NCBI GenBank assembly: GCA_009692265.1
Contig: SHZM01000006.1
Location: forward strand, 3,080-67,079
DNA: 64,000 nt
DNA from: Gammaproteobacteria bacterium
GTDB taxonomy: Bacteria; Pseudomonadota; Gammaproteobacteria; Ga0077536
Direction of reading: 5' to 3'
Positions within the stretch are counted from its first letter, which is position 1, and every line of letters begins with the position of its first letter. Made by a program: the position numbers and the translations under genes. Shown one piece after another: positions 2,427 through 45,783 of this stretch. The notes under the pieces were generated by a model, which had not been told where the DNA came from, did not search any database, and saw only the letters and a list, made by a program, of their open reading frames with translations.

Positions 2427-2465
2427 ATCGCGTGTAGCTTCGAGGGCGTTCAGTAGACGCTCCGC

Positions 2466-2690: not shown

Positions 2691-3005
2691 GCGGAGAACT
2701 TTTTCCTTGCTGGCGCAGTTCGTTCATTCGATAAGCATTGAGTGGATTTGCCGTAGCCTGTGCCGTGACGATGAATCAGTTCGGATCCCAGTGTGGCAGG
2801 AGTCTAAAATGCAAAGGGGTAATGCGCTCGGCGTTCAGGGTGATCGTGCACAAAGCAATGTCGATTTCCTGGCGTTCGGGATTGGTGGCGAGTACGGCAT
2901 CCATCATGGTGCTGACGTCGTAACGTTATCGGGGATACTCTAACCAATGTCCATGTCACTAGCGCGTCAGAGTTTTCTTAAACCTCTTCCGGAGCGTGCA
3001 TTGCA

Positions 3006-3887: not shown

Positions 3888-3890
3888 ACA

Positions 3891-4964: not shown

Positions 4965-5132
4965 CAGCCTAATCGGTAAAACCTGCTGGCATAGGAACAA
5001 TTGAAGGCTGCTAAGTTGCATCGCCTGCTACACATCCTCGATGCGAGACTGCTCGAATTGCCTGGTACTGTTGAAAGTCAGTCGAGGAAGCGGTGGCTAA
5101 ATACTAGATGATGTGATTCGAGGAGAGGACAT

Positions 5133-7151: not shown

Positions 7152-7161
7152 AGGTTCTAAT

Positions 7162-9126: not shown

Positions 9127-9269
9127 ATCGAGGACGTTGGCTAGACATTAGACGCTATTCAAATTCGCGTACCGCGACGATACTGGGGCCTGGTTGGTCA
9201 CGCGCGAGTTACACGATGTTTATTCAAAGCTTATCTGGCAGCACGCTTCGCGAGGTACGTAGGCGAACG

Positions 9270-10232
9270 ATGGAGTGCTTGGCTGCCATGCTGGCGCTGA
9301 ACCTCGCAACGAGTGCATGTGCTGAGGATAAGGTCGGCGCGAGCGCCTACGGCCCCGCGGATGAGGTCGGCGCATTAAATGTCCTGACCGACTCCACACG
9401 GCTCGCCGTGCTACAGCGAATTGCCAGCGGCAAGATTTACGACCTCAGCGTGGAGAGTTTTCCTGGAATGCCCGGGTTGGTGCACCTCGGCATGGGCGAC
9501 CCCGAATACCATCACTGGATGACGCACACGCCGGAAGGACTCGCGATCGAGGGTTTGAATCCCGGCGACCCGCAGCATCCCATCGGGTTGTACGACGATG
9601 CGATAATTATGTCTGTCCACACCGGTACCCATATCGATGCGCTGAATCATGCGGGCTACGGTGATCAGATCTATAACGGCTTCAAGCGCTCCGAACATCT
9701 TGGTAACAAGGGCTGGAAGGTCGCCGGCGCGGATCGCATTCCCGCCATCATCACGCGTGGCGTGCTGATCGACGTTGCAGGTTGGAAGAAGCTCAACGTG
9801 CTACCACCGTCCTACGAAATTACGCCGTCCGATCTCGAAGCAGCACTCGCCGCACAAGGCACCTCACTGCAAAAAGGCGACGCGGTGTTCATTCGCACTG
9901 GCCGGATGACGTTATGGCCAGACCCCACGACGTACGTGCCTCACGAACCGGGTATCGCACAACCGGGCGCCGCTTGGCTGATTGAGCATGGGGCCGTCAC
10001 GATGGGCGCCGATACGATCGCGTTCGAACGTCTGCCCATCAAGGGCAAAGCCGTCCACAGCTTTGTATTTGCAGAACGCGGCGTCACGATCATGGAGAAC
10101 GTCTGGTTGGAGGATCTCGCGAGCGACAGATGCTATGAGTTCGTGTTGTTTGCAGCACCAATCAAACTGCGGGGTGCGACAGGTGCGCCGATCCGACCCT
10201 TCGCTTTACCGATAAAAATAACATCGAAGTAG
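9270..10232 (+). CDS. Cyclase family protein (kynurenine formamidase-like, PF04199)
   Basis: 'HTGTHIDALNH' matches the HxGTHxDxxxH cyclase motif. The ORF-track start at 9042 overlaps hyuB. The internal ATG at 9270 (MECLAAMLALNLATSACA, signal-peptide-like) is the more plausible start. Confidence 0.75.
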   Translation: MECLAAMLALNLATSACAEDKVGASAYGPADEVGALNVLTDSTRLAVLQRIASGKIYDLSVESFPGMPGLVHLGMGDPEYHHWMTHTPEGLAIEGLNPGDPQHPIGLYDDAIIMSVHTGTHIDALNHAGYGDQIYNGFKRSEHLGNKGWKVAGADRIPAIITRGVLIDVAGWKKLNVLPPSYEITPSDLEAALAAQGTSLQKGDAVFIRTGRMTLWPDPTTYVPHEPGIAQPGAAWLIEHGAVTMGADTIAFERLPIKGKAVHSFVFAERGVTIMENVWLEDLASDRCYEFVLFAAPIKLRGATGAPIRPFALPIKITSK

Positions 10233-18803: not shown

Positions 18804-20132
18804 CGGGTCCTGTCAGGAATTATGTGTTTGTGAGCCATACTTTGATCCGGGGAGGATAGAGCATGGCAACGAAGAAAGCGTCGGCGTTCAGCGCCGAATC
18901 ATTGGATGAGCTGTTGGCTGATCAGGACCCTGGTACGGTCTTGAACTCGGATGGCTTTCTGGGAGATTTAAAGAAGGCCCTGGCAGAGCGGATGTTAAAT
19001 GCCGAGATGGATGTCCATCTTGGCCGTGAGTCTGAACGAGAGTCGGGTAACCATCGCAACGGGAGTAGTACCAAGACCGTACTGAGTGGTGACGGCGAAG
19101 TCGTATTGTCGATACCTCGCGACCGTCATGGTCGCTTTGATCCGGCGCTGATAGGCAAATATCAACGGCGGTTTCCAGGCTTCGACGAGAAGATTATCGC
19201 GTTGTATGGGCGGGGGATGAGCACGAGGGATATTCAGGCCCACGTGGGCGAACTATACGGCGTGACGATGTCACCGGATTTGGTGTGTGCGGTAACAGAA
19301 TCGGTGATGGAGGAAGTGCGCGCGTGGCAATCGAGACCCTTGGAAGCGACCTATGCGGTGGTCTTTTTTGACGCCTTGCGGGTGAAGATTCGGGACGAGG
19401 GAATGGTACGTAATAAAGCGGTGTATCTGGCGATTGGGATGCGCTGCTCGGGGCACAAGGAAGTCCTGGGGCTGTGGATTGAGCAGACGGAAGGCGCGAA
19501 ATTTTGGTTGCGCGTGATGAACGAGCTACGCGCACGCGGCCTGCAGGACATTTTGATTTCAGTGGTGGATGGGCTGAAGGGATTCCCGGAGGCGATCACC
19601 TCCGTGTACCCGGAGACCGTGGTCCAGACGTGCATCGTGCATCTCCTGCGTAATTCGCCCTATCTAGCTTCCTGGAAAGACCGCAAGGCGCTGACTGCGG
19701 CGCTGAAACCGATATACCAGGCCGATAGCCTGGAAGCCGCTGAGCGCGCGCTGACGGCCTTTGAAGCCGGTCCCTGGGGACAGCAGTTTCCGACGATTGC
19801 CGAAAGCTGGCGTCGTCACTGGGCGCACATCATTTCGTTTTTCGCGTTTGCGGCGCCGGTCCGCACCACCTTGTACACGACCAACGCGATTGAGAGTTTG
19901 CACAGCGGGGTGCGCAAAACGATTCGCAACAAAGGCCATTTCCCAAACGATGATTCCGCCACCAAACTCATCTGGTTGGCACTACGAAACATTACCGCGA
20001 AATGGGTCAATCCGCCTATCGCCTGGGCTCAAGCCAAGGCACAATTCGCGATACAATTCGGAGACCGATTCAGTGTCGCCGATTAATCAACAACGGCTCA
20101 CACACAAAATTTCTGACAAGCTCTCAGGCCCG
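18804..20132 (+). mobile_element. IS256-family insertion sequence (intact transposase CDS 18863..20086)
   Basis: 407 aa transposase with 'LDELLADQDP…DGFLGDLKKALAERMLNAEMDVHLG…VVDGLKGFPEAI…CIVHLLRNS', an IS256/mutator signature. Imperfect terminal inverted repeats at 18804-18836 ('cgggtcctgtcagg…gtgtttgtgagcc') and 20095-20132 ('ggctcacacacaaa…ctctcaggcccg'). Confidence 0.9.
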
Positions 20133-30719: not shown

Positions 30720-32066
30720 ATGCGGCACGTTGAATCTCCCCAACAGATGACCTTAGTGGCTTTTCTGCAGGCGCAGAACTGCTCCAACTACACGGCATCG
30801 TGGCGGCATCCCGAGACAGCGCTCGATTTCATGACGCCGGAGTATTACCAACGGATCGCACGTATCCTCGAAGCCGGAAAATTCGATCTGGCGTTTTTCG
30901 ACGATCGGTTGGCGATGCCAGACATCTACCATCACGACTACGCCGAAACCGTTCGGCACGGGATCCGCGCCGTAAAAATGGATTTGCCGACGATCCTGAT
31001 GGCCATGGGGCTCAGCACGAAACACCTCGGCCTAGGCGCGACGTACTCGACCACCTACTACGAGCCGTTCCATGTCGCACGGGTGTTCGCAACGCTGGAT
31101 CTGATGACCGGCGGTCGCGCGGCCTGGAATGTCGTGACGTCATTGAACGATACCGAAGCCGCTAATTTTGGCCGCGAGCACTTGCTCGATCACGATCTGC
31201 GCTACGACCGCGCTGACGAGTTTATGGAAATTGTGCTGGGTCATTGGGCGAGCTGGGAAGACGGCGCGATCCTTCAAGACCGGGCCACTGGCTTGTTCGC
31301 GGATCCCGACAAGGTACGGCGCTTGGACTATCAGGGTCGCTGGCTGCGATCCCGCGGGCCGTTCACCGTGCCACGTTCGCCGCAGGGACATCCAGTCATC
31401 ATTCAAGCGGGGCAAAGCGGTCGCGGTCGTGAATTCGCGGCACGTTGGTCGGAACTCGTGTTTGTGATTCATCCCAATATTGAATTCGCGAAACGCAGCT
31501 ACCGAGAATTCAAGCAGGCGGTCGCAAGCAAGGATCGGGATCCCGCCAATGTCAGGATCTCGCCGGCCATATATGCGGTTATCGGCGCGACCCAGACGAT
31601 GGTGGAGGACAAGCTCGCGTTGATTGATGGACTCGCGAAACCGATCGATGCGCTGACCTTGCTCTCCGAAGTATTGAACTTCGATTTCGGAGCGAAGGGG
31701 ATGGATGATCCGTTCACGGCGGAAGAATTGGCCTCTGCGACTGGCCTGCAGGGGATCCTCGATCGCGTCATGCGCTTAAGCGGCTTGGCAAATCCCACGG
31801 TGCGGGATTTTTTACACTTCAGTGGTCGCGGTACGCTACGCGAGCTGCCGCTGTTCGCTGGTACTCCAACTCAGGTTGCCGATCAATTGGAAGAATGGTT
31901 TGTCGGGGAGGCCTGCGACGGCTTTGTGTTGGCGGCGACCCATATGCCAGGGTCTTACGAAGATTTTGCGCGCCTGGTGATCCCGGAACTTCAGCGACGC
32001 GGCCTGTTTCGCATGGAGTACCCGGGGATGACTTTGCGCGACACCCTCGGTTTCGCGAAACCATAA
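30720..32066 (+). CDS. LLM-class FMN-dependent monooxygenase, NtaA/SnaA/DszA subfamily
   Basis: 448 aa. 'WRHPETALDFMTPEYYQRIARILEAGKFDLAFFDDRLAMPD…' is typical of nitrilotriacetate-monooxygenase-A-like enzymes. Confidence 0.85.
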   Translation: MRHVESPQQMTLVAFLQAQNCSNYTASWRHPETALDFMTPEYYQRIARILEAGKFDLAFFDDRLAMPDIYHHDYAETVRHGIRAVKMDLPTILMAMGLSTKHLGLGATYSTTYYEPFHVARVFATLDLMTGGRAAWNVVTSLNDTEAANFGREHLLDHDLRYDRADEFMEIVLGHWASWEDGAILQDRATGLFADPDKVRRLDYQGRWLRSRGPFTVPRSPQGHPVIIQAGQSGRGREFAARWSELVFVIHPNIEFAKRSYREFKQAVASKDRDPANVRISPAIYAVIGATQTMVEDKLALIDGLAKPIDALTLLSEVLNFDFGAKGMDDPFTAEELASATGLQGILDRVMRLSGLANPTVRDFLHFSGRGTLRELPLFAGTPTQVADQLEEWFVGEACDGFVLAATHMPGSYEDFARLVIPELQRRGLFRMEYPGMTLRDTLGFAKP

Positions 32067-32263: not shown

Positions 32264-32804
32264 TCCGGAACACCGCGATTTCCCGAGGCATTCTTGGGTG
32301 TCCCGGAATAATTCTGTCGTCGGCGACATTGGCTTGAATGGGTCGATTCGATGGGTGTCCCCGATTCGGCTCCGCGATCGAGCATCATCGGCACTGAAAC
32401 CACCGAGATGCCGAAGACCAGCGTTGCGAAGAAAGCGCCCACCGTGCAATAAGCGAACAGAAATTGTGGATGGTCGACCGAGAACAGGTGCGTCAGGAAA
32501 TATTTCATCGTCGGCATCGGCATGCCGGCGAATTGGTGGGGGGCGGGCGTCGGCGGATCGCGGTGTTCGGATTCTTCCATCGAGCGGATTCCCGTGACCG
32601 GTTCGCGTGGCGGTCGCAGGCGTAAGGCACAAGTACAGGTTTAGGTACAGGTCACTCAAGGCCTGCAATCAATCTTAATCCTAGCAGCGTGTCAGGCTTC
32701 GCGGGCAGGCACATCGCAGGCGCTTGGTCGATGTCAACAATTCGCACTACGCAGGCAATCCCGGCGGCGCATAGGCGCCGCTGGGATTAATTTTGGTGGG
32801 GGGA

Positions 32805-34624: not shown

Positions 34625-35020
34625 TCAGAGACTGCGGACAGGCATCCTTTCCCCCCGCGTGCGCCGCAAGCGCGTGGCGGCGCGGCTGGCGGCGGCTGGC
34701 GTGTCGAACGTCAGTGCTTCAAATATGATCAACGGGCGCGCGCGATCCGCGCTTAATTGGCCGACGCACCAGCGCCGCTCCGTTTCGGTACAGACCACCA
34801 CATACGCGCCTGGTAGCGGGCCGAAGTGCCGGTTATTGAGCGTAAAAAGACACTCCGCGAGTTGATTGAGTTTGTCCGGATCGAGCGTGCCGAGTAATGC
34901 AGACTCGAGTTTATTCGGGGTGCCCGCGAGCGCGGGCATCACATGTTTGCCGCGCGGTGGCGCGAGAGGCCGCCCCGGGTTCTGCTGCGGCGCCGGTTTT
35001 CGCGCGCGACGCGGACTCAC
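34625..35020 (-). CDS. Protein of unknown function (~131 aa), DMFase-cassette-associated, copy A
   Basis: GTG start overlaps the large-subunit stop (GTGA at 35017-35020). It is a paralog of 42499..42927 (shared 'GP.PG.YVvV…R..VGQL.AD.A.P…FE.L.F'). Confidence 0.6.
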   Translation of the reverse strand: MSPRRARKPAPQQNPGRPLAPPRGKHVMPALAGTPNKLESALLGTLDPDKLNQLAECLFTLNNRHFGPLPGAYVVVCTETERRWCVGQLSADRARPLIIFEALTFDTPAAASRAATRLRRTRGERMPVRSL

Positions 35021-37401
35021 GGCAATGGTCCTTTCTTGAGAAAGCCCTTGATCACGTTCTTCATCAGGCGCGACACGTTGTTGTCGTAATTGTGGTGGGA
35101 CAGTGCGCCACACCAGGCCAGCGAGCCGGGCGCGAAGACCGCCCCGTCATTCGGCGTCTTGTAGTAGATCATGTCCGCCCGAATCATCGGATTCTCATCG
35201 CCGCCGCCGTAAAAACCGCGCACCGAGAAGTGGACTTCCTCGTTGACCTGCAGCATGAGATCCGTATGGCCTTCGGAGCGCGCGAGAAGGAACGCGTGGT
35301 GCGGCGTGCCGAATTCCAGATCGTAGCGGTCGATCTCCAGGCCCGCGGCGCCGCCGCCGACGAGGCCGAAGTCACCGATCACCTCGTCCTGACCGATCCC
35401 TTGAAACATCCACGCGCATTCGGGCCGCAGGCTATCCGCTTCGCGCCGATAGTAAGTGGAAACATCGAAACCATAACCGGTGAACGTGAGTCCGCAGACT
35501 TTGCTCGGGATGCGACCGCGCGCCCGCCACATTCCGCCGTACTTGCCGTCAAATGCATTGTTGTATTCGCCCGGATTCGCGGTCCACGCGCGGGTACCGG
35601 CCTCGCCTTTGCGTACTTCGATGATATTGCTGTTGTCCGGATGGTACTGGCTGCACCAGTAAAAGCCGTTGGCACCGAGGTACATCCAGCGCCCGCCGCT
35701 GGCCTGGTAAGCCTCGTAGGCATTGAGCATGCGTTCGGAAGAGTACTCCGGATGGCTGCCCGTCAAGACCACCTGATAACGGGACAACAGCCCGAGTCCC
35801 TCGCGATCGAGATCCTCATCGGTATGCACATCGAACTCGAAATTCATCTGTTCGAGCCAATCGGTCAAATGCAGATCCGCGTTAAACTGCCATAACGACG
35901 GCGACAACCAGTGCCGATACTTCGGGCGCATGTTCAAGATCGGTCGCAGGCGCGAGCTGTAGCACACCCCACTGCCGTCCGAATGGCAGGAATAAGTGGA
36001 CAGACCGTATTCGCGATGCTCATTCAGATAGAGATCCGAAGCGTTCATGATCGGCACGCGCCCGGCCAGTAGCTGCGCGACGACGGAATTGGTGGCAAGG
36101 TTGTCGTTCGAATAGGCCATGTAGCTGTTGGTCGGCACGATGAACGCAATCTTCGCGGTCGCCGTCCCGCGCGGCGGCCGCACGAAGAACGGAATGTAGT
36201 CTTCGGTTTCCGGCGAATCCTTGCCACCGATCCGCAGGCGAGCCGCATAGGCCCCACTCTTCAAGGTGGTGGGCAAGGTATAGGTAAAATCCACTGCCCA
36301 CCGCGCATCGTCGAGGTCATCGTCATGGAAATGGATCGCGCCATACTCATGCGGAATGTGGTGATAGACGATATCGTCGCCGCTCCAGTTATAGCCGGTC
36401 ATGCCGCGGACCGGGAGATTGATGGCGAACCCATGCAACTGATTCGGTGAGATATCCACGATCTGGCACGAGGCGATATTAGTCGTGATGTTGGCGTGAA
36501 AATCCCAGGCACCCACCACGGCAATGCGCAGCTCCGCAGCGGCTCCCGCGAAGCCGCGCGCGAGCGCATCGATTTCTGCTTTCGAAAGTGCTCTATTCGA
36601 AATCCTGGGACGGTCGATTTTCCCGTTATAACACCAGACCTGTTCCGGCAGGGACACCGCGGAGATGGCCTCCTTGTAGTGACCCCCTTGAATGCTGCGT
36701 CCCGAGTCCGTCTCCGCGGTCGCCGCGGCGAACAGGACCGGCGCGTCATTCTTGGCCGGACCATGGGCGCTCTTGGTCTTTACCACTGCGCTAGTCTCGT
36801 GCGCAGGGTGCAGCAGCGCCATGCCGAGTCCGCCATTCGTCGATGACACGATCGGTTCCTGATACAGCACCACCTGCCCGGTGTCCGCGTCGTAGCTGGC
36901 CGCCACCAGGTACCATACCTTACGACGCAATGGTTTCCCGCTCGTGAGCGTGGTGAGCTTGCCGCGCGTCCCGCCGATCATCACAGTAAGACAACCCGCT
37001 TCATCAACAAACAGACCATAGCCGGACTTCCGGCCGACATCCCACTTGGTCACTACGCCCTGCATGCCTTTGTCATGGCAGTAGCCATGCGGTCCGGGGC
37101 CTGGGGTGGTGGGGAAAATAAAGGCCTGCACGGTGAAGCTTGCACAGTCCAGGCGTGAGTCGGCCGGTATCACTACATACGAGCCACCGTGAATCTTCTG
37201 CGGTCGCCCTTGGTAGCGTTGATTGCAGGGCGCTTTGATTTCTTTTTCCTTGAAACCAGGTCCTTCGGGATTCGTATCCCCATGGATTACACGCACGATC
37301 TGGACGTCGTAGCGCTCTCCCTTCTCGGCATTCACATAGAATTTGATCGTCTCGCCAGGACATGCGGAATACTTATCGCTGTAGCCGGTGATCCGAAGCA
37401 T
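35017..37401 (-). CDS. N,N-dimethylformamidase large (beta) subunit family protein, copy A
   Basis: 794 aa. It has the LamG-like central region and the conserved C-terminal catalytic region '…GGRWMYLGANGFYWCSQYHPD…YGGMWRARGR…' typical of DmfA2-family proteins. Preceded by a 'gagga' SD. Confidence 0.85.
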   Translation of the reverse strand: MLRITGYSDKYSACPGETIKFYVNAEKGERYDVQIVRVIHGDTNPEGPGFKEKEIKAPCNQRYQGRPQKIHGGSYVVIPADSRLDCASFTVQAFIFPTTPGPGPHGYCHDKGMQGVVTKWDVGRKSGYGLFVDEAGCLTVMIGGTRGKLTTLTSGKPLRRKVWYLVAASYDADTGQVVLYQEPIVSSTNGGLGMALLHPAHETSAVVKTKSAHGPAKNDAPVLFAAATAETDSGRSIQGGHYKEAISAVSLPEQVWCYNGKIDRPRISNRALSKAEIDALARGFAGAAAELRIAVVGAWDFHANITTNIASCQIVDISPNQLHGFAINLPVRGMTGYNWSGDDIVYHHIPHEYGAIHFHDDDLDDARWAVDFTYTLPTTLKSGAYAARLRIGGKDSPETEDYIPFFVRPPRGTATAKIAFIVPTNSYMAYSNDNLATNSVVAQLLAGRVPIMNASDLYLNEHREYGLSTYSCHSDGSGVCYSSRLRPILNMRPKYRHWLSPSLWQFNADLHLTDWLEQMNFEFDVHTDEDLDREGLGLLSRYQVVLTGSHPEYSSERMLNAYEAYQASGGRWMYLGANGFYWCSQYHPDNSNIIEVRKGEAGTRAWTANPGEYNNAFDGKYGGMWRARGRIPSKVCGLTFTGYGFDVSTYYRREADSLRPECAWMFQGIGQDEVIGDFGLVGGGAAGLEIDRYDLEFGTPHHAFLLARSEGHTDLMLQVNEEVHFSVRGFYGGGDENPMIRADMIYYKTPNDGAVFAPGSLAWCGALSHHNYDNNVSRLMKNVIKGFLKKGPLP

Positions 37402-37472
37402 GGGGTTGTCCTCATTTATGTACCGTCGACGCCGCGCGCCAGAAATGTTCGGTTCGGTGCCAACGCGGCCGT

Positions 37473-37922
37473 TCAGCGCACTTTATGCCCGTAACTGGCC
37501 AGGAGTTCGTGCACCCGTTTGACGAAAATCGCGTGCTCACAGGAATCTTCGGATGGATAGGAGTCGGCGAAGATCTTGACCGGCTTGCCGCGCACGCCAG
37601 TACACATGCCAATGCGGTAATCGCGATGCGCGGCGACACAGATTCGCACGTACTTGCCGGCCATCGGCGCACGCCGGAGTTTGTCGATCACATGCGCAAG
37701 TTCTTCACTGTGCTGCACACCGGCCTTGCCACCTTTGCCCGGCAAGCCGATCGGGTTCTCGCAATGTTCAGCGAGCAGGCGCTCGCGCGTCGTGCGGTCG
37801 GTCAGCAGCGGGAGGACATGGGTGCGGGTAATGAAGTCATCCGTACTGGTATAACCCTGGTTGGTTTGGACGCCGGTCGGTTTGGTCGCCATCGTTCCTC
37901 CCAGGCTTTTTGACTCGTGCAA
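37473..37922 (-). CDS. Putative DMFase small (alpha) subunit-like protein, copy A
   Basis: ~140-149 aa gene directly upstream of the large subunit. It is a paralog of 45352..45783 (shared 'IDKLR…', 'EHAIFVKR'). The size matches the ~15 kDa DMFase alpha subunit. The assignment is by context. Confidence 0.55.
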   Translation of the reverse strand: MHESKSLGGTMATKPTGVQTNQGYTSTDDFITRTHVLPLLTDRTTRERLLAEHCENPIGLPGKGGKAGVQHSEELAHVIDKLRRAPMAGKYVRICVAAHRDYRIGMCTGVRGKPVKIFADSYPSEDSCEHAIFVKRVHELLASYGHKVR

Positions 37923-37993
37923 TACTTATAACACTGGCGTCCGGCAAAATGAAGGTTAGTTCTTTCAATGCGCAGAAACTTTCTCTACTCTCA
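37893..37993. promoter_or_regulatory. Divergent intergenic/promoter region between DMFase-like cassette A (minus) and the GS-like operon (plus)
   Basis: ~100 bp, locally AT-richer ('cttataacactggcgtccggcaaaatgaaggttagttctttcaatgcgcagaaactttctctactctcaatgcaacgt'). It is flanked by divergent start codons. Confidence 0.45.
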
Positions 37994-39364
37994 ATGCAAC
38001 GTATGAATACGACCCCGCTAAACTGGTCTGCCGCTTCGGGTACCGCGCTTAGCGACATTTTGGAGCGCGAGCGCATCGAGTTTGTGCACGCGGGGATCTT
38101 CGATACTGAAGGAGTGTTCCGCGAAAAGCGGTTGCCGGTGGCGCTGGCGCGCCGGTACCTGGCGGAGGGTTGGTCTTTCATCGACGCGCTGCCGTACTGG
38201 GGGCCCAACGACACGGTACGCGCGGACCGCGCTTATCGCAGCGAAGCCTGCCAGCTTGATGTCGCGAGTCTGCGCCCTTACCCGTTCGAACCTCACGCCG
38301 CGTTGCTGGTGGCGGACTACACCGGCGACAGCGCCGCGTTGTCGCCGCGGGCACTGCTCGCGGCCCAGATCGCGCGCGCGCACCAACTTGGCTTCGAACC
38401 CCTTGGCGCAAGCGAGTTCGAGTTCATCATTCTCGACGAAACGCCCGCTACGCTGAGCGCCAAGAATTTCGATCAGCTGCAGACGCTGGCACAGGAGAAT
38501 TGTTGCTGGTCGGGGCTATATCCGGCCGCGGGCGCAGAATTCCTGCGCGATTACGATCACTGTCTGCGGGCCGGGGATATTCCCCTGCATCATCTGTGCT
38601 CGGAACTGGGCCCGGGGTGCCTGGAAGCCGCGCTGCCCGTGCGCCAACTGGCGACGGCGGCGGACGATGCCGCACTTTTCAAGCTGTTCACCAAGGCGTT
38701 CTGCATTCAACGCAGTCTCACCGCTTCTTTCATGGCCCAGCTCTCGGATACGCATCCCGGACTGGGCGGGCATCCCAGCTTGTCGCTGCGCACGCGCACG
38801 ACTGACGTCGCCGCGTTCCATGCGGCCGACGATCCGCGCGGAATCTCGATCGTGTGCCGGCAATTTATCGCGGGCATCCTGCAAGCCTTGCCCGAACTCA
38901 TGCCGATGTTCGCCAGTACGGTGAATGCTTATCGCCGGTATGTGCCGGGCAATTGGGCGCCACGCACCGCGACCTGGGGGCTCGGGAATTACACCTGTGG
39001 TTTACGGGTGGTGGCTGGCGCGCCGGACGACTGTCGGATTGAATTTCGCTTGCCCGGCGCGGATACCAATCCGCACCTGGCCTTCGCGCTGATGCTCGGC
39101 GCCGGGTTGCGGGGAATCGAGCAAAATCTGCAACCCCCGCCTGAAACGACCGACATCGGCCGCGAGTTCGTGCATCCGGCGATCGGTCCGTTACCGCGCT
39201 CGCTGCTCGAAGCCGCCGAACGCATGCAGCGTAGTACGCTGGCGGCTGATTTGTTTGGGGCCGAGTTCGTGACCCATTTCACCCAGAGCTGTATTCAGGA
39301 AGACATCACAATGCGCCGGCACGTCGCGGCATTTGAACGCAAGCGTTACCTTCATCACGTATGA
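37994..39364 (+). CDS. Glutamine synthetase-like protein 1 (divergent GlnA-family paralog)
   Basis: It has the GS catalytic-domain layout ('GASEFEFII', 'NAYRRYVPGNWAPRTATWGLGNYTCGLRV'). The canonical HHE.APGQ.E region is replaced by 'HHLCSELGPGCLE'. Confidence 0.75.
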   Translation: MQRMNTTPLNWSAASGTALSDILERERIEFVHAGIFDTEGVFREKRLPVALARRYLAEGWSFIDALPYWGPNDTVRADRAYRSEACQLDVASLRPYPFEPHAALLVADYTGDSAALSPRALLAAQIARAHQLGFEPLGASEFEFIILDETPATLSAKNFDQLQTLAQENCCWSGLYPAAGAEFLRDYDHCLRAGDIPLHHLCSELGPGCLEAALPVRQLATAADDAALFKLFTKAFCIQRSLTASFMAQLSDTHPGLGGHPSLSLRTRTTDVAAFHAADDPRGISIVCRQFIAGILQALPELMPMFASTVNAYRRYVPGNWAPRTATWGLGNYTCGLRVVAGAPDDCRIEFRLPGADTNPHLAFALMLGAGLRGIEQNLQPPPETTDIGREFVHPAIGPLPRSLLEAAERMQRSTLAADLFGAEFVTHFTQSCIQEDITMRRHVAAFERKRYLHHV

Positions 39365-39405
39365 GCGTGGCGCTTTAAACCATCAGCACCCGGAGGAGCC
39401 TTGCT

Positions 39406-40872
39406 ATGACCGCATTGGAGAATTACGTCAAAGACACTGCGCGCGCGGAAGGCGTCAAGAAAGTCCGCGCGATGATCAAAGCGCTGGGCGTCGAGTACAT
39501 CTACTTCCAGTTCGTGTCGGTCACCGGGCGAATCGTCGGTAAGGGTGCGCCTGCCGATCACTGGGAGCGAATCGCCACTAAGGGCTTCCAGCTGGTCTAT
39601 GGTTCGACCGCCAATCTGTTCATCAGTCGCAAAGGGCGTTACCTCGGCTACGGGCCGGAGGCCCATGAGCTGGTCGGCATCGCAGATCCGGAAACGTTTG
39701 TGCAGTTGCCGTGGGAACCGCGCGTGGCGCGGGTGTTCTGCACCTTATTCCGCAATCGCGAAGAGCTGGTCGACCCCGGCGGCTATCTGAGCTCGGATTG
39801 CCGCGGCAATCTCACACGCGCCCATACCGCGTTCGAAAAAAAGCACGGCCTGCGGCTGCGGCTCGGCACCGAACCCGAAATGATGTGGTTGAAAAAGGGT
39901 GCCGACGGCAAACCCGCTGGCGGCGTCACCAAGCCTTATTGTTACCACATCGATCAGTTCGAAGAACTGCGACCGATCACGCTCAAGGTGACCGAGTACT
40001 GTCGCAAGATGGGTATTGACTGCATTCAGGGTGATCACGAAGACGCCCCCGGACAGCTCGAACTGAACTGGACGTACGACGATGTCGAGCGGACGTCCGA
40101 TCGGCTGACCACCTACCGTCAGATCTGCACGCAGGTGGCTCGCGAGTTCAACGTCATCGCGTGCTTCATGACCAAGCCTTTCATGAAAGTCTCGGCGAAC
40201 GGCTGTCACCATAATTTCTCGCTGTGGAAAGGCGGCAAGGACCAGGTGACTACCTTCGATGGCCTGTCGAAGTTCGGCATGTCCGAGGTGTTCACCTACG
40301 TCACGGGTGGCCAGAACAAATTCGATCCCGAAGGCAAGGATCTCCGCATGCCCGGGCCGATCGGCCAATGGGCCGCCGGCGGCATCGTTAAACACCTGCC
40401 AGCGCTGACTGCGCTCGGGGCGTCCACGGTGAACTCCTACCGGCGCCTGCTCGACCAGGGCTACTGGGCGCCCGTCTACAACAATTGGGGCTATCAGAAT
40501 CGGACCTGTGCGCTGCGCGTGTCCGCACCAGGGCGTTTCGAGTATCGTGCCGTCGATTCGATGGTCAATCCCTATTTGTTGAATGCAGCGTTGCTGGCGG
40601 TCATGGATGAAGGCATCAGCCAAAAGCTGGATCCCGGTCCGCTGGAGCAGCGCAATATCTACGAACTCGAACTCGCCGGGAAAAAAGTGGTGAAGCTGCC
40701 CACGAACCTCGGCATGGCGCTGGATGCGATGGAGGCCGATCCCTTGGTGCGCTCGGCGCTTCCGGGCGAGATGTGGGATGTGTTCATCGACTACAAACGT
40801 GATGAATGGGACAAATTTCTGGCGACGGTCACAGCCTGGGACCACGACACTTACATGGACTATCTGCCCTAG
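39406..40872 (+). CDS. Glutamine synthetase-like protein 2 (gamma-glutamyl-amine ligase type, GmaS/PuuA/IpuC-like)
   Basis: 'GDHEDAPGQLELNW', 'NSYRRLLDQGYWAPVYNNWGYQNRTCALRV' and 'EPEMMW' are canonical GS catalytic motifs. 488 aa. Confidence 0.85.
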   Translation: MTALENYVKDTARAEGVKKVRAMIKALGVEYIYFQFVSVTGRIVGKGAPADHWERIATKGFQLVYGSTANLFISRKGRYLGYGPEAHELVGIADPETFVQLPWEPRVARVFCTLFRNREELVDPGGYLSSDCRGNLTRAHTAFEKKHGLRLRLGTEPEMMWLKKGADGKPAGGVTKPYCYHIDQFEELRPITLKVTEYCRKMGIDCIQGDHEDAPGQLELNWTYDDVERTSDRLTTYRQICTQVAREFNVIACFMTKPFMKVSANGCHHNFSLWKGGKDQVTTFDGLSKFGMSEVFTYVTGGQNKFDPEGKDLRMPGPIGQWAAGGIVKHLPALTALGASTVNSYRRLLDQGYWAPVYNNWGYQNRTCALRVSAPGRFEYRAVDSMVNPYLLNAALLAVMDEGISQKLDPGPLEQRNIYELELAGKKVVKLPTNLGMALDAMEADPLVRSALPGEMWDVFIDYKRDEWDKFLATVTAWDHDTYMDYLP

Positions 40873-40887
40873 CCCGGAGCAAACATC

Positions 40888-41772
40888 ATGCGGGACTTCA
40901 GCCTTAGCGACGGACAGGTTACTGACTTCGAACGGGATGGCTTCATCACCGTCGATCGCATCATCGATGACGACGAAGTGGCACTCCTGCGTGCGCGCTA
41001 TGACGAGTTGTTCAAAGGTCACTGGGAAACCGGCCTGGTGCCCGACGAAGTAAACTGGCTGGAAGGACGCGATCCCCCCGATCACACCCGTCAAATCTGC
41101 AATGGCTGGAAATCCGATCGGTTTGTGGCGAGCGTCATCCTGCAGGAATCGATCGGCCGGGCCTGCGCTACGCTCGGCCGTTGGCCCGGGACCCGCATCA
41201 GCCAGGACAACATTCTGTGGAAGCCGCCAGGCGGCAAACCGTTAGGGTTCCATCAAGATTCTGCCTACGAACAATGGACGAACCTGCCGGACTGGGTGAG
41301 CTGCTGGATTGCGCTCGATGACACCAGCGCCGAAGGTGGCACGGTTGAGTATGTGCGGGGATCGCACCGCTGGGGCCAGTCCGGCATGATCGAGCAGTTT
41401 CATGCGCCGCAGAACCCGGTCAAAGACCTCGAAAAAGCCGCCGCTGCGGCGGGGGTTACGCAGATCGAGCGGGTGCCGATCGTCGTCAAAGCCGGCGGCG
41501 GCGCGTTTCATGGCGGCTGGACCTGGCACGGCTCGGACGTCAACCGCTGCGAGGTCCCGCGCCGTTCGATCGTGGCCCATTGCATGTCCTCCGAAACCCG
41601 CTTTCATCCGACCTATGTCGGCTATATCTACAGCCGGTACAAACGTTTCGGCGATGACACCATGGATGAAGCCTTTTTCCCAATTCTGTGGCGCCAGGAT
41701 GGCTACCGCTCACCGTTCATTGCACCCTACGCCGCACGGCACATTACCTGGGGCGAAGCGCTGCCGGCGTGA
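40888..41772 (+). CDS. Phytanoyl-CoA dioxygenase (PhyH) family Fe(II)/2-oxoglutarate dioxygenase
   Basis: 'WKPPGGKPLGFHQDSAYEQW' (HxD) and 'GGAFHGGWTWHGS' (distal His) form the PhyH fold. The stop overlaps the next gene's GTG. Confidence 0.85.
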   Translation: MRDFSLSDGQVTDFERDGFITVDRIIDDDEVALLRARYDELFKGHWETGLVPDEVNWLEGRDPPDHTRQICNGWKSDRFVASVILQESIGRACATLGRWPGTRISQDNILWKPPGGKPLGFHQDSAYEQWTNLPDWVSCWIALDDTSAEGGTVEYVRGSHRWGQSGMIEQFHAPQNPVKDLEKAAAAAGVTQIERVPIVVKAGGGAFHGGWTWHGSDVNRCEVPRRSIVAHCMSSETRFHPTYVGYIYSRYKRFGDDTMDEAFFPILWRQDGYRSPFIAPYAARHITWGEALPA

Positions 41773-42482
41773 GGCGCCGGCTCGGCCTGCTGGCCTGCGA
41801 CAGCATCTGGGAACCCCTGCGTTCCCGTTTTGGCGATTACGCCGAGATGTACACCGCGCTGCTCCAGGCGGCCGGTGCCGACTTCGAACTCAAGGTTTTT
41901 GCGGTTCATCGAGGCGTGCTGCCGGCGCATCCGAGGGACTGCGATGCGTGGCTGATCTCCGGCTCGCGCGCCGGGGTGTATGACGCCCAACCCTGGATCG
42001 CGACCTTGCAGAATTTCGCACGTGCGGCGCATGCGATCGAGGTCCCCCAGGTCGGGATCTGTTTCGGTCATCAGTTGCTGGCACAGGCTCTCGGTGGCCG
42101 CGTCGAACGCGCGGCCACCGGCTGGGGTCTCGGCAATCTTGAGGTCGAACTGCGCGGCGAGTCGGCGTACCCGGCACCGACGTCCGGTCCGCTCCGGTTG
42201 TTCATGGCGCATCAAGATCAGGTTGTGACCCTGCCACCCGACGCGCAGTGGCTGGCCGCGGCGGCGCATTGCCGCCACGCTGCGTTCGCGCTGGGTGAGC
42301 AGGTGCTGGGCGTCCAGGCGCATCCCGAGTTCACGGCTGACTTCATGCGGGAGATGACCCTCGAAGCGACGTTCGAAATCCCGCCCGCCGTGCGCGCCGC
42401 GGCGCTCAGCAGTTTTGCTAAGCCGGTCGACAGCGCCGTTATCGGGCGCTGGATCGCCACTTTTCTGGGGCTGCTCAGCTGA
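41769..42482 (+). CDS. Class I glutamine amidotransferase-like protein (gamma-glutamyl-amide hydrolase type, PuuD/IpuF-like)
   Basis: 'VGICFGHQLLAQALGG' holds the catalytic Cys and 'VQAHPEF' the His. GTG start gives a GTGA overlap with PhyH. Confidence 0.75.
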   Translation: MRRRLGLLACDSIWEPLRSRFGDYAEMYTALLQAAGADFELKVFAVHRGVLPAHPRDCDAWLISGSRAGVYDAQPWIATLQNFARAAHAIEVPQVGICFGHQLLAQALGGRVERAATGWGLGNLEVELRGESAYPAPTSGPLRLFMAHQDQVVTLPPDAQWLAAAAHCRHAAFALGEQVLGVQAHPEFTADFMREMTLEATFEIPPAVRAAALSSFAKPVDSAVIGRWIATFLGLLS

Positions 42483-42498
42483 GTTCGGGCACCGGCGG

Positions 42499-42927
42499 TT
42501 AGCGGCAGCTGAGCTGCGCCGCCGCGCGGAGTTCTGTCGCCTTGGCGCGCGCCTTCGCTTCGCTCGCGAACACCAGATCCTCGAACAACTGCACCGGCGC
42601 GGCCGGATCCGCACACAGTTGCCCGACCGCATAACGCCCGGATGCCACTGCGACAATCACATAAAAGCCGCGCACCGGGCCGGGTCGCGCACCGTTGAGG
42701 CGATACAGCACTTTGGCAAGATCGGCGAAGTGGCTGTCATCTTCGACCACCGCCTCGACGCGTGTCGGCGGCGCATCGGAGCGCACCCAGCGATGCGGCA
42801 TTTCTCCGGCGTCGCTGGTGAGCGGTAGTGCTTGCTCGCCGCGATAGGCCGGATGCAGCCACCAGGTCTCATCGCGTTTCAGCGGGACTTCGGCGGCCGC
42901 TTTGACTTTCGAGCGGCGGGGGTTCAC
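42499..42927 (-). CDS. Protein of unknown function (142 aa), DMFase-cassette-associated, copy B
   Basis: ATG overlaps the large-subunit stop (ATGA). Paralog of 34625..35020. Confidence 0.6.
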   Translation of the reverse strand: MNPRRSKVKAAAEVPLKRDETWWLHPAYRGEQALPLTSDAGEMPHRWVRSDAPPTRVEAVVEDDSHFADLAKVLYRLNGARPGPVRGFYVIVAVASGRYAVGQLCADPAAPVQLFEDLVFASEAKARAKATELRAAAQLSCR

Positions 42928-45368
42928 GGCAGAGGACCGTTCTTCAGGAAGCCATCAAGCGTATTGCGCATCAACCGCGACACGTTGTTGTCGTAGCGAT
43001 TGTGCGACAGCGAGCCGCACCAGGCCATCGAGCCGACCGAAAACACCGCGCCGTCATTCGGGGTCTTGTAGTAGACGATGTCCGCACGGGTGCGCGGATT
43101 GTTGTCCCCCGTGCCGCCGGCGATATACCCGCGCGCGTTAAAAGTTGACTCTTCGGTGACCGAGACGAACATGTCGGAATGACCTTCTGAATTTGCGAGC
43201 AAATAGGCGCGATGCGGCGTGCCCAGTTCCAGATCGTAGCGATCGAGTTCGAGCCCGGCCGCGCCATCCCCGACCAGGCCGAAGTTCCCGATCGGCTCGT
43301 CACGCGCAATGCCTTTGAACATCCACTTGCATTCGGGCAGTTCGCTGTCCGGCGCCCGGCGGTAGTACGAGGAGTAAGTCAAGCCGAACGACGTGAACGT
43401 GACGCCGAGAATCTTGCTCATGACCCTGCCGCGTACCCGCCACAGGCCACCATGCTTGCCGTCGAACGCATTGCAGTATTCGCCGGGCGCGATGGTCCAG
43501 GCACGGGTCCCGTTGTCGCCTTTGCGCACTTCGACAATGTTCGGGTTCTCCGGGTGGGGCTGACAGATCCAGTAAAAGCCGTTCGCGGCGAGATACATGA
43601 AGCGGCCGCCGGCCTGCTGGTAATCGTGATACGCCTGCATCTGCTGCTCGGACACATACTCCGGATGATGGCCGGTCAGCACGATGCGGTACTGGTTCAA
43701 CAGCGCTACGCCTTCACGCTGCACGTCTTCGTCGGTCAGGATGTCCAAGTCGTAATTCATCTCGTGCAGCCAGTCGACCAGATGCAGATCCGCATTGAAC
43801 TGCCAGAGCGACGGCGACAACACATGCACGTATTTGGGACGCATATTCAGAATCGGGCGCAGCCTGGACGAAATATTCACGCCCCAGCCGTCGCGGTAGG
43901 ACGTATAAGTGCCAAGCCCGTAACCGCGCTCTTGGTTCAGCAGCAGATCACCCGGCTGCAGCAGCGGCACCTGGCCCGTCAGCAGTTGCGCGATCACGGA
44001 ATTCACGCTCAAGTTATCGTTCGCATAGGCGAGGTAGCTGTGCATCGCCATCACGAGCGCGATTTTCGCGGTCGGGCCGCTGGCCGGCGGGCGCACGAAG
44101 AACGGGACATAATCCTCGTACTCAGCGCTGGTGGAGCCATTCACACGCAAGCGCGCGGCATACACCCCGCTTTTGAGATTGGCCGGAACTTTGAACGTGA
44201 ACGACGGCGCCCAGCGCGCGTCGTCGACCGACTCATCGTGAAAATGAATCGCGCCATATTCTTGCGGGGCGTGACGGAAGCTCATGTAGTCGGAAGACCA
44301 GTTGCAGCCGGTGACCCCGCGCACCGGCAGATTGACGCCGACGCCGTGCAGATGGTTCGGGCCCGTATCCACGATGTGCGTCGAGGCCGCGTTATCCGCG
44401 ATGTTCGCGCTGAAATCCCAGGCCCCGACCACTGCGCCGCGCAGTTCGCCGGGGATGTTTTCACAACCGGCTGACGCCAGCAGCATTTCCACCTCGGCCG
44501 CGCTGAGCGCGCGATTCGCGAGCTTAGGGCGTTCGATCTTGCCGTTGTATTTCTGGGTGTGGACCGGGATCTCCCACGGCATCGGGAGATGCTTGAAGTG
44601 GCCACCATGCAGCGTGCGCCCGGAGTGGGTCTCCAGCGTGCTGGCTGCAACCAACAGCGGACAATCGCTCGTACGCGGGCCGGCGCTGCGGGTGCGATAA
44701 CACGCGCTCCCGGCGGTGTCGTCGAGCGGGTGCAGCATGCTGAGGCCATGGCCACCATTCGTGATCGTCACGAACGGGGTCTGCCACACGCGAATCTCGC
44801 CGCTTGCCGCATCAAACGTGGCCGCCACCTTGTACCAGACCTTGCGAAACAGCGGTTTGCGGGTCGCGTATTCTTCAACCTTGCCGCGGCCGCGCCCGAT
44901 GCGGAGCGCCAGTTCACCACTTTCGTTGATGAACAGGCCATAGCCGACGCCCGTGGACGTGTTGAATTTAGAGATAATCGCCTGCGCGCCCACCGCCACA
45001 CCCTCGGTATCGACCAGCGGCGTGGTGGGATAGACGTAGGCGCACAAAGTGAAACTCTGCACGTCGAGCCGTGCATCGTGCGGCACCATGACATAGCTGC
45101 CGGCATACACCGCCTGATGCTGACCGCGATAGCGGCGATTAGTAGCGCTGCGGACCAGTTTTTCCTTGAATCCCGGCCCCTCCGGGTTCGTATCTCCGTG
45201 AATCAACCGCACGATGTCGGCCTGATACGGTTCGTCGAACTCGCTGTGCACGTGGAAAGTGACTTCTTCGCCCGGGCGGACCGAACACCGATCGGTGTAG
45301 CCGGTCACGCGCAGCATCATTGGTTGGGTGTTTGCCATGCGGATCAGCCTTTCAGGATTCGATGCCAT
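42924..45368 (-). CDS. N,N-dimethylformamidase large (beta) subunit family protein, copy B
   Basis: ~800 aa and collinear with copy A throughout ('MLRVTGYTDRCSVRPGEE…', '…GGRFMYLAANGFYWICQPHPEN…'). The start is likely the internal ATG at 45338 or 45320. Confidence 0.85.
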   Translation of the reverse strand: MASNPERLIRMANTQPMMLRVTGYTDRCSVRPGEEVTFHVHSEFDEPYQADIVRLIHGDTNPEGPGFKEKLVRSATNRRYRGQHQAVYAGSYVMVPHDARLDVQSFTLCAYVYPTTPLVDTEGVAVGAQAIISKFNTSTGVGYGLFINESGELALRIGRGRGKVEEYATRKPLFRKVWYKVAATFDAASGEIRVWQTPFVTITNGGHGLSMLHPLDDTAGSACYRTRSAGPRTSDCPLLVAASTLETHSGRTLHGGHFKHLPMPWEIPVHTQKYNGKIERPKLANRALSAAEVEMLLASAGCENIPGELRGAVVGAWDFSANIADNAASTHIVDTGPNHLHGVGVNLPVRGVTGCNWSSDYMSFRHAPQEYGAIHFHDESVDDARWAPSFTFKVPANLKSGVYAARLRVNGSTSAEYEDYVPFFVRPPASGPTAKIALVMAMHSYLAYANDNLSVNSVIAQLLTGQVPLLQPGDLLLNQERGYGLGTYTSYRDGWGVNISSRLRPILNMRPKYVHVLSPSLWQFNADLHLVDWLHEMNYDLDILTDEDVQREGVALLNQYRIVLTGHHPEYVSEQQMQAYHDYQQAGGRFMYLAANGFYWICQPHPENPNIVEVRKGDNGTRAWTIAPGEYCNAFDGKHGGLWRVRGRVMSKILGVTFTSFGLTYSSYYRRAPDSELPECKWMFKGIARDEPIGNFGLVGDGAAGLELDRYDLELGTPHRAYLLANSEGHSDMFVSVTEESTFNARGYIAGGTGDNNPRTRADIVYYKTPNDGAVFSVGSMAWCGSLSHNRYDNNVSRLMRNTLDGFLKNGPLP

Positions 45369-45783
45369 ATTGGTCGAGCAACGCCTTGAGGCGTTTCAAA
45401 AAAATCGCGTGTTCGGCGTCCTCCCGCGAGCGATAGCGTTCCTTGGTGATCTTCACCACGCCGCCACGTCGCCCCGGCAGGATCCCGATCGCGTATTCCT
45501 GCCATGGCACGGTTTCGACAATGGTGTGCTTGCCGGCCTGGGGCGTCATCCGCAACTTGTCGATCAGATGTTTCAGTTCCGGGCTGTGATTGGGGGGTTT
45601 AACGCCCGGCTGTGCCGCCGCGCCGCGTGGATGCGTCCGATGTTCGGCGATGATGCGCGCGCGACTCGCCGGATCCCGCAGGTGCGGCAGGATGTACATT
45701 CGGTTGTCGTAGTCGTCGACTGCGGTGAATCCGTAGTCACGGGCCAACGCAGTGGTCGGACCTGGATGACGTCTGGTGGCCAT
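45352..45783 (-). CDS. Putative DMFase small (alpha) subunit-like protein, copy B
   Basis: 143 aa. Paralog of 37473..37922. It lies directly upstream of large subunit B. Confidence 0.55.
   Translation of the reverse strand: MATRRHPGPTTALARDYGFTAVDDYDNRMYILPHLRDPASRARIIAEHRTHPRGAAAQPGVKPPNHSPELKHLIDKLRMTPQAGKHTIVETVPWQEYAIGILPGRRGGVVKITKERYRSREDAEHAIFLKRLKALLDQYGIES

Follow-up and report, generated by a model that had tools for sequence, protein, structure and literature searches.

Duplicated three-gene cassettes of the N,N-dimethylformamidase family flank a putative gamma-glutamylation operon in an aquatic gammaproteobacterium

Introduction

N,N-Dimethylformamidase (DMFase) is generally presented as an enzyme that acts on a synthetic solvent, N,N-dimethylformamide (DMF), with a fold "of unknown evolutionary origin" and without a known natural role. 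Here, we describe two cassettes of DMFase-like genes, A and B, in a 64,000-nucleotide stretch of a gammaproteobacterial genome of the lineage Ga0077536 (GenBank assembly GCA_009692265.1, contig SHZM01000006.1, positions 3,080 to 67,079; hereafter, the window). Each cassette comprises the genes of a small subunit (α), a large subunit (β), and a third protein, here called α′. The two cassettes flank an operon encoding two glutamine synthetase (GS)-like proteins, a PhyH-family dioxygenase, and a class-I glutamine amidotransferase (GATase)-like protein.

The closest described systems are the DmfA1A2 enzymes of Paracoccus sp. DMF (PDB entry 6LVB) and of Paracoccus aminophilus plasmid pAMI2. In the Paracoccus DMFase, a mononuclear iron is coordinated by Y399, Y440, and E521, residues H519, N547, and E657 are essential, and F693 of a neighbouring subunit closes the pocket (PMC7686228). 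Two N-terminal helices of the small subunit wedge between the large subunits, and the enzyme is most efficient on N-methylformamide (PMC7686228). Other members of the large-subunit family are the acetamiprid amidase AceAB of Pigmentiphaga, which is reported to have two subunits and to be inactive on DMF (PMC11573777), and the N-acetyl-(R)-β-phenylalanine acylase 8HUY. In the environment, DmfA from Alpha- and Gammaproteobacteria was found to be expressed in the Pacific in a metaproteome study (PMC9477243). Finally, "an N,N-dimethylformamidase" is included in the flotillin-associated rhodopsin (FAR) cluster of SAR11, HIMB59, and Pseudothioglobus; the small flanking genes are not discussed in the part of that report considered here (PMC10308929).

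The window cassettes resemble DmfA1A2 in having the small gene before the large one, a large subunit collinear over its full length, a small subunit of the same fold, and the two-Tyr-one-Glu iron site together with H519, N547, E657, and F693. They differ in carrying a translationally coupled, α-like third gene, which is absent from the dmfR-dmfA1-dmfA2 locus of pAMI2, and in being chromosomal, in uncultured aquatic bacteria, and present as two old paralogs. Moreover, they are linked to GS-like, PhyH, GATase, and Amt genes, whereas the pAMI2 genes are linked to a plasmid-borne LuxR regulator. AceAB and 8HUY share the large-subunit family and illustrate that its members take varied N-substituted amides, DMF not being a family-wide substrate. 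AceAB is described with two subunits, however, and the 8HUY entry contains the large chain only; neither has been reported with an α′, and their substrates are xenobiotic or synthetic.

The flanking operon has its own precedents. IpuC-IpuF and AtdA1-AtdA2 are γ-glutamylation routes of amine catabolism. As in these routes, in PuuA-PuuD, and in the GmaS/N-methylglutamate pathway, the window operon (37994-42482) combines a GS-like ligase, a class-I GATase-like γ-glutamyl hydrolase, and an oxidising enzyme. The oxidiser differs: in the window it is a PhyH-type Fe/2-oxoglutarate dioxygenase, and in the described routes it is an FAD oxidase, a P450, a Rieske dioxygenase, or N-methylglutamate synthase/dehydrogenase. 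The window operon further differs in encoding a second GS-like protein with an altered active site.

Results

DMFase-family features of the cassettes

A preliminary description of the region, made from the DNA letters and open reading frames (ORFs), had assigned the two large proteins to the DMFase β family and noted that they are collinear but diverged. Both points were borne out. The large proteins of cassettes A and B matched DMFA2_C (E = 2.5e-94 and 8.4e-88, respectively), each with a LamG-like domain in addition (Pfam scan), and shared 59% identity over 800 residues (E = 0). Residues 3-794 of large A aligned with residues 5-760 of the Paracoccus DMFase large subunit (6LVB_A; E = 8e-187); the match to the acylase 8HUY was weaker (E = 3.5e-131). 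Identity to the characterised DmfA2 of pAMI2 was 43-44% for both.

Equivalents of Y399, Y440, H519, E521, and E657 were invariant in 37 of 37 aligned large subunits, and the N547 and F693 equivalents are also retained in large A and large B. As the full catalytic set is kept, both large proteins should, from their sequences, be active iron amidohydrolases. In one subclade of A-type proteins (loci L017, L021, L025, L028, L029, and L033) and in the homolog on pAMI5 (L044), Asp takes the place of the Asn547 equivalent; the window proteins lie outside this subclade. The N547A variant of the Paracoccus DMFase is inactive, and the Asp-bearing A-type subclade may differ in mechanism or substrate.

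For the small subunits, a profile of the family matched the DMFase small subunit (6lvb_B) with E = 5.5e-12. Single-sequence searches of the PDB gave only E = 0.5 to 6lvb_B for the small subunit and nothing meaningful for α′. The four small cassette proteins had no match in Pfam or NCBIfam scans; PF26354 (DMF_alpha) was seemingly absent from the Pfam set scanned and was present only in precomputed annotations. None of the six cassette proteins matched any NCBIfam model. In sum, the hallmarks of the DMFase family (PF20254 plus PF26354), namely, full-length large-subunit homology, the iron ligands and catalytic residues, and an upstream small subunit, were all found. Those of a characterised dimethylformamidase (EC 3.5.1.56) were not: the cassettes lack the two-gene composition and showed neither orthologue-level similarity nor an equivalog match. 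The cassettes almost certainly encode αβ amidases of the DMFase family.

A conserved third gene related to the small subunit

The third gene had been described as a conserved cistron outside the dmfA1A2 system, encoding a protein of unknown function. It indeed has no counterpart at the characterised pAMI2 locus. As to its nature, profile comparison, PF26354 matches, and a structural model indicate that α′ is very probably a diverged paralog of α. Several α′ proteins carry a precomputed "weak" PF26354 annotation, and hhalign aligned the small-subunit and third-gene families with 94.6% probability (E = 7e-8) using our own alignments and 90% (E = 1.5e-6) using those of the tool. Both matches were confined to the C-terminal 57-65 columns. 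In the AlphaFold model of third B (predicted local distance difference test score, 87), this C-terminal core comprises a helix (68-77), three strands (83-95, 98-106, and 112-120), and a second helix (123-141). The predicted core of small B, obtained with an alignment built from database homologs, has the same elements in register at 68-78, 86-92, 96-101, 111-117, and 120-138. This core is all that α′ and α have in common: α′ is devoid of the two long N-terminal helices of α.

The α′ family is small, being represented by 61 cluster representatives out of 1.84 billion. Database searches yielded 67 homologs with the invariant core LNGxRPGPVxGxYVxV...AVGQLxAD...PVxLFxDL, which rules out a spurious ORF. 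B-type α′ proteins additionally have their own conserved N-terminal motif, RDExWWLHPAxRG...PHRW.

The conservation of the trio was evaluated using two scans with opposite selection. In the first, species-representative genomes were searched with the α′ alignment, yielding 34 loci that were hence selected via α′. Independently of this selection, the small gene lay upstream of the large gene in all 33 cassettes with room for it. In the second, metagenomes were searched with A-type small subunits, yielding 80 loci selected via the small gene; α′ followed the A-type large gene in 57 of 57 cassettes with room downstream, again independently of the selection. Overall, the small-large-α′ trio was kept in about 100 homologous cassettes of aquatic Alpha- and Gammaproteobacteria. 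The large gene ends in ...GPLP-stop, with the α′ start overlapping the stop in an [A/G/T]TGA junction (approximately 39 of 46 cassettes). The codon CCC is rare as the last proline codon in these GC-rich genomes, which would fit selection for the overlapping start. In one marine locus (L039, 9621-10001, P0066), a fourth small gene directly follows α′ and is itself an α′ homolog, giving the order α-β-α′-α″.

The role of α′ is less certain than its ancestry, and we consider a stoichiometric subunit somewhat the likelier. Alternatively, but with appreciably lower probability, α′ is an accessory factor and not part of the mature enzyme, for example, a chaperone that assists the large subunit in assembly or iron insertion, or a regulator that competes with α for its binding site. 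The missing wedge helices, with only the C-terminal core common to α′ and α, would suit such a factor, as would the two α′-like genes in a row at L039; furthermore, the two-subunit DMFase of pAMI2 and, by report, AceAB (PMC11573777) work without α′. On the other hand, a stoichiometric partner would explain at least equally well why α′ is translationally coupled to the large subunit and strictly co-occurs with it, and the divergence of α′ in step with its own type of cassette suggests a specific interface between the proteins.

Two old cassette types

The large subunits formed two clades: identity was 74% or more among A-type proteins, 69% or more among B-type proteins, and no higher than 62.5% between the two types. 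The small and third genes sort into the same A-type and B-type groups; between the window cassettes, identity was 42% for the small proteins (E = 6e-35) and 42% over the 73 C-terminal residues of the third proteins (E = 2e-14). As all three genes sort alike, we conclude from these sequences that A and B are old paralogs that were duplicated long ago as whole cassettes. A recent tandem duplication was ruled out by the A-B identity of only 59% and the separate clades. Cassettes A and B probably differ in substrate.

The B type is the widespread form, occurring in Gammaproteobacteria, Rhodospirillales, Rhodobiaceae, Roseobacter weihaiensis H9, and a plasmid of Aminobacter niigataensis DMFA1. The literature searched contained nothing relevant on a third DMFase subunit or on Aminobacter strain DMFA1. 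The hosts are metagenome-assembled genomes (MAGs) of lakes, including the deep water of Lake Baikal, and of the open ocean, with streamlined, SAR11-type gene clusters among them. The titles of four freshwater MAG contigs (L002, L010, L011, and L013) name "Klebsiella pneumoniae" or "Klebsiella sp."; judging by gene content and nearest relatives, these organism names are probably wrong.

Linkage of the cassettes to the GS/PhyH/GATase operon

Trios were found in four contexts. In the first, in freshwater and marine Gammaproteobacteria, a methyltransferase gene lies upstream and an enoyl-CoA hydratase gene downstream. In the second, in Alphaproteobacteria, genes for a binding protein, a hybrid kinase and regulator, and flotillin precede the trio, and those for a Urt/Liv-type ABC transporter and a divergent Amt come after it. 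The third consists of rhodopsin, flotillin, α/β hydrolase, trio, SSF symporter, and Fe-alcohol dehydrogenase genes: distant A-like small-large-α′ trios lie in exactly the published FAR cluster. The window differs from this cluster in containing no flotillin or rhodopsin homolog, which were present in 20 and 16 related loci, respectively. The fourth context, of GS-like, PhyH, GATase, and Amt genes, is that of the window and its relatives. The neighbours of the trios in L017, L028, and L033 had no coherent theme by Pfam (α/β hydrolases, a glutaredoxin-rhodanese protein, an Na:alanine symporter, and an FAD-binding protein).

Nitrogen- or amide-related neighbours also occur beyond the fourth context: in Alphaproteobacteria, the trio is followed by the Urt/Liv-type transporter and an Amt-like gene, and the pAMI5 homolog, which has no α′, has an AmiS/UreI channel nearby. 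Trios of both Gamma- and Alphaproteobacteria repeatedly have an Amt-like gene in their vicinity. The Amt of the window scored 164.8 bits with TIGR00836, and that of L043 (16386-17747) 94 bits, against a cut-off of 343; such trio-adjacent Amt-family proteins may not be ordinary ammonium transporters.

In the preliminary description, the co-localisation of cassettes and operon was put forward as a candidate nitrogen-scavenging system. Neither the trio nor its linkage to the operon is unique to this genome. At least one GS/PhyH/GATase gene was present in 9 of 25 loci of at least 10 kb from the genome scan and in 8 of 37 from the metagenome scan, that is, in 17 of 62. The full set was found in the close relatives L049, L054, L055, L064, and L065, and a partial set before the sequence ends in L002, L006, L014-L016, and L056. 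The linkage thus recurs, mainly at A-type cassettes of related freshwater Gammaproteobacteria, and is not a general property of the trio.

The linkage persists through rearrangement (L002, L003, L006, L014-16, L048, L049, L054-56, L061, L064, and L065). In some loci, A and B form a tandem pair and the operon is divergent from A; in L006, the operon points the same way as B (GS-PhyH-B); in others, as in the window, B lies beyond the operon. The divergent layout of small A and GS was shared by L014-L016, L048, L049, L054-L056, L064, and L065. On one contig of a Baikal MAG, GS1-PhyH-GATase adjoins an A-type cassette in divergent orientation, and a B-type cassette lies 75 kb away in the first context; the operon therefore goes with the A-type cassette. 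PhyH genes, sometimes with Amt, also occurred just downstream of more distant A-type cassettes with 72-78% large-subunit identity (L028, L029, L033, L089, and L100), both genes being present in L089 and L100.

Because many A-type loci are without operon genes and the positive loci are interrelated, the evidence for functional coupling is moderate, not strong, and we consider such coupling an even proposition. The region may instead be a nitrogen-scavenging island in which the cassettes, the operon, and Amt act on different substrates and are neighbours through shared regulation or lineage-specific synteny. This is a real, if less probable, alternative. It accommodates the occurrence of the trio in at least four unrelated contexts, the limited and largely phylogenetically clustered linkage, the GS-like and PhyH pair without a DMFase-like gene within 8 kb in L045, L046, and L047, and the presence in the window of other scavenging-type genes, for hydantoinase A/B, a cyclase, and luciferase-like monooxygenases. 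It does not readily account for a linkage that outlasts changes of layout, with B on either side, for an operon that stays with the A-type cassette when A and B are far apart, or for the reappearance of PhyH beside divergent A-type cassettes.

Proteins of the flanking operon

The best PDB matches of GS-like 2 were the glutamate-methylamine ligases 9qur_A (E = 4.3e-57) and 7cql_A. Mapping of the functional residues of the Rhodovulum GmaS, RhGmaS (PMC7948447), revealed that GS-like 2 retains 13 of 13, including the catalytic D177, E186, and R312, the amine-pocket residues, and W300, which replaces the flap glutamate of GS. With TIGR03105 (type III GS/GmaS; cut-off, 469.6 bits), GS-like 2 scored 302.4 bits and GS-like 1 161.7 bits, both below the cut-off. 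Based on its residue signature, GS-like 2 was treated as a GmaS-type γ-glutamyl-amine ligase of uncertain specificity.

GS-like 1 is nearest to PDB entry 5dm3. Relative to GmaS, it keeps the metal ligands and carries the substitutions Y147W, Q175H, D177C, N188A, and R312Y. These were common to all seven aligned GS1-type sequences (six rows of the GS1 family and the GS-like protein encoded beside PhyH in L047), with Ser for Ala at position 188 in two. GS-like 1 may be a pseudo-enzyme or catalyse a different reaction.

The PhyH protein is a member of a large family whose identity across Proteobacteria is 60-86%, and a GS-like gene lay near PhyH in all four other contexts examined. The gammaproteobacterial locus L047 (1-16873) contains sarcosine-oxidase-like α, δ, and β, GS2-type, GS1-type, and PhyH genes a few kb from mauA, mauD-like, and mauE genes of methylamine dehydrogenase, and ties the GS1/GS2/PhyH module to methylamine metabolism. 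There, it is the GS1-type gene (6598-7944; 53% identity to GS-like 1), not the GS2-type gene, that adjoins PhyH. In L048, a GS1-type gene (8569-9927; typed by tblastn, 70% identity) is the sole GS-like gene beside PhyH and the A-type cassette. The GATase was nearest to PDB entries 3m3p and 9k7i (γ-glutamyl peptidase 1) and contains the motifs GICFGHQ and HPE. The literature searched contained no paper linking gmaS with a PhyH dioxygenase.

PhyH homologs with 63-67% identity were also found in a conserved cluster of Bradyrhizobium (L045, 8001-15202) and Paraburkholderia (L046, 5758-14214) that may be biosynthetic. It contains glycine-decarboxylase-P-like genes, a carbamoyltransferase gene, a GS-like gene with the GmaS signature, and an EamA exporter gene, as well as an ATP-grasp ligase gene in L046 only. 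By analogy with these neighbours, the window operon could make a hydroxylated γ-glutamyl compound, the amidases being unrelated or recycling that compound. This is very unlikely: the partners in the window lineage are catabolic (a hydrolase-type GATase, an Amt-like transporter, and amidases), as are those in L047 (methylamine dehydrogenase and sarcosine-oxidase-like proteins).

Layout of the locus

All eleven genes of the region were present in the order, on the strands, and with the sizes of the preliminary description, with corrections of start sites (Table 1). Identical proteins were found in an NCBI MAG titled "Gammaproteobacteria bacterium" (EXR86 locus tags) and in an ENA assembly whose genes are in the same order. 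The two paralogous cassettes, A (37892→34625) and B (45783→42499), have the same gene order on the minus strand and lie on either side of the plus-strand operon (GS-like 1, GS-like 2, PhyH, and GATase). The most likely start of small A is the ATG at 37892, behind GGGAGG, rather than the TTG at 37922 proposed earlier, and that of large B is the ATG at 45338. The third gene starts inside the large-subunit stop in both cassettes, as described; direct reading of the junctions gave ccGTGA in A and B alike and not ATGA in B.

Table 1. Features of the cassettes, the flanking operon, and the adjacent amt-like gene (positions in the window)
Feature	Position	Strand	Remarks
Terminator-like hairpin, 14 bp stem	32757..32788	.	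After amt-like gene
Divergent Amt-family transporter, 468 aa	33043..34449	-	Ammonium_transp 1.3e-49; same direction as cassette A
Cassette A third gene, α′, 131 aa	34625..35020	-	GTG start overlaps large-subunit stop; PF26354 "weak" match
Cassette A large subunit, DMFase β family, 794 aa	35017..37401	-	DMFA2_C + Laminin_G_3
Cassette A small subunit, DMF_alpha, 139 aa	37473..37892	-	PF26354 precomputed match; ATG behind GGGAGG
Divergent intergenic region small A / GS-like 1, 101 bp	37893..37993	.	
GS-like 1, 456 aa, variant active site	37994..39364	+	Gln-synt_C 2e-69
GS-like 2, 488 aa, putative GmaS-type γ-glutamyl-amine ligase	39406..40872	+	PDB matches + residue signature
PhyH-family Fe(II)/2-oxoglutarate dioxygenase, 294 aa	40888..41772	+	PhyH 4e-22
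Class-I GATase-like, γ-glutamyl-peptidase type, 237 aa	41769..42482	+	GATase 1.7e-15; Peptidase_C26 weak; GTG start
Cassette B third gene, α′, 142 aa	42499..42927	-	GTG start overlaps large-subunit stop (GTGA)
Cassette B large subunit, DMFase β family, 804 aa	42924..45338	-	DMFA2_C 8.4e-88
Cassette B small subunit, DMF_alpha, 143 aa	45352..45783	-	

The operon begins 101 bp from small A on the opposite strand and is compact, with gaps of 41 and 15 bp and the GTG of GATase (41769) overlapping the stop of PhyH; its final stop is 16 bp from the convergent stop of cassette B. The amt-like gene lies approximately 170 bp 3′ of cassette A and has a GAGGAGG site. In the preliminary description, cassette A reads on into amt; no terminator-like hairpin was found between α′ A and amt, and the strong hairpin after amt is the likely end of the cassette A transcription unit. 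Scans for sigma-70 promoters and terminators revealed nothing else that was informative.

Elsewhere in the window (867-10232 and 30720-32066), there are genes for hydantoinase/oxoprolinase A and B subunits, a putative cyclase, three luciferase-like monooxygenases, and a PEP-mutase/isocitrate-lyase-like protein. In the Baikal MAG locus L048 (1-4802), genes for a cyclase, a luciferase-like protein, a GDPD, and an FMO-like monooxygenase flank the A-type cassette. A Mutator-family transposase gene (E = 2e-120) is located at 18863-20086 of the window, approximately 15 kb from cassette A.

Discussion

Taken together, we somewhat favour a model in which the cassettes encode three-subunit amidases that release an alkylamine, which is then γ-glutamylated for nitrogen scavenging; the substrate and the coupling are the conjectural parts of this model. 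Each cassette would encode a cytoplasmic amide hydrolase of the DMFase family with a mononuclear Fe(III) centre, in which a catalytic β is combined with α and α′. Translation of α′ would be coupled to the end of the β gene, and the protein most likely serves as a third structural subunit of the complex. The substrates of the enzymes are most likely small N-substituted amides from the water, of the N-alkylformamide or N-alkylacetamide kind, and their hydrolysis would yield an organic acid and a small alkylamine. GS-like 2 would capture this amine as a γ-glutamyl-alkylamide, PhyH would oxidise the alkyl group of the latter, and the GATase-like γ-glutamyl hydrolase would release glutamate and ammonia, with the Amt-like transporter as part of the same nitrogen-scavenging unit. 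We infer the order and chemistry of the GS, PhyH, and GATase steps. Alternatively, PhyH acts on the amide itself.

Methylamine would be the leading candidate for the amine because GS-like 2 has the GmaS signature, L047 provides a methylamine context, and the Paracoccus DMFase is most efficient on N-methylformamide. That methylamine in particular is the intermediate is nevertheless doubtful.

Several observations weigh against the coupled pathway. Most trios sit outside the GS/PhyH/GATase context, in the first three contexts; only the 17 larger loci carry any gene of the operon, and many A-type loci carry none. The loci with the full set are close relatives and so are phylogenetically non-independent. 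The GS-like gene tied most tightly to PhyH and cassette A (L047 and L048) is GS1, which is without the GmaS residues D177 and R312, and PhyH homologs also occur in the biosynthetic-looking clusters L045 and L046. No mgs or mgd genes (mgsABC and mgdABCD) were present among the window ORFs scanned. Finally, a scan for sigma-54 sites (TGGCAC-N5-TTGCW, up to 2 mismatches) returned fewer matches than expected by chance and none in the relevant intergenic regions.

That the cassettes are ordinary dimethylformamidases for the industrial solvent DMF, merely duplicated, is most improbable: full-length homology and complete catalytic residues would agree with it, as would the B-type trio on the plasmid of A. 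niigataensis DMFA1, which may be a DMF-related isolate judging by its strain name alone, but identity to the characterised pAMI2 enzyme is only 43-44%, no NCBIfam equivalog matches, an extra gene is conserved, the hosts are lake (including deep Lake Baikal) and open-ocean MAGs, and family members of similar identity take quite different substrates (the acylase 8HUY, and AceAB, inactive on DMF).

The observation underlying the preliminary description is thus confirmed and its interpretation partly supported. Three elements are new. The third cistron is very probably a paralog of α. The small-large-α′ arrangement is the standard form of the DMFase-like enzyme in aquatic bacteria. Lastly, there is a moderately supported, A-type-specific link to a GmaS-like/PhyH/γ-glutamyl-hydrolase operon. 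In a more far-reaching and unlikely version, the αβα′ iron amidase would be the main natural form of DMFase in aquatic bacteria and act on a common dissolved organic nitrogen compound, such as an N-methylated amide; in the window lineage, it would also feed an undescribed route in which GmaS-type ligation is followed by oxidative dealkylation by PhyH straight to glutamine and an aldehyde, bypassing N-methylglutamate synthase/dehydrogenase.

The cassettes offer a way towards the natural substrate of an amidase that is abundant and expressed in the environment. Genetic tests are feasible since two cultured hosts, R. weihaiensis H9 and A. niigataensis DMFA1, carry B-type trios. For the family, the analysis provides a proposal for a third DMFase subunit and, for its aquatic hosts, a candidate new way to draw nitrogen from small alkylamines.

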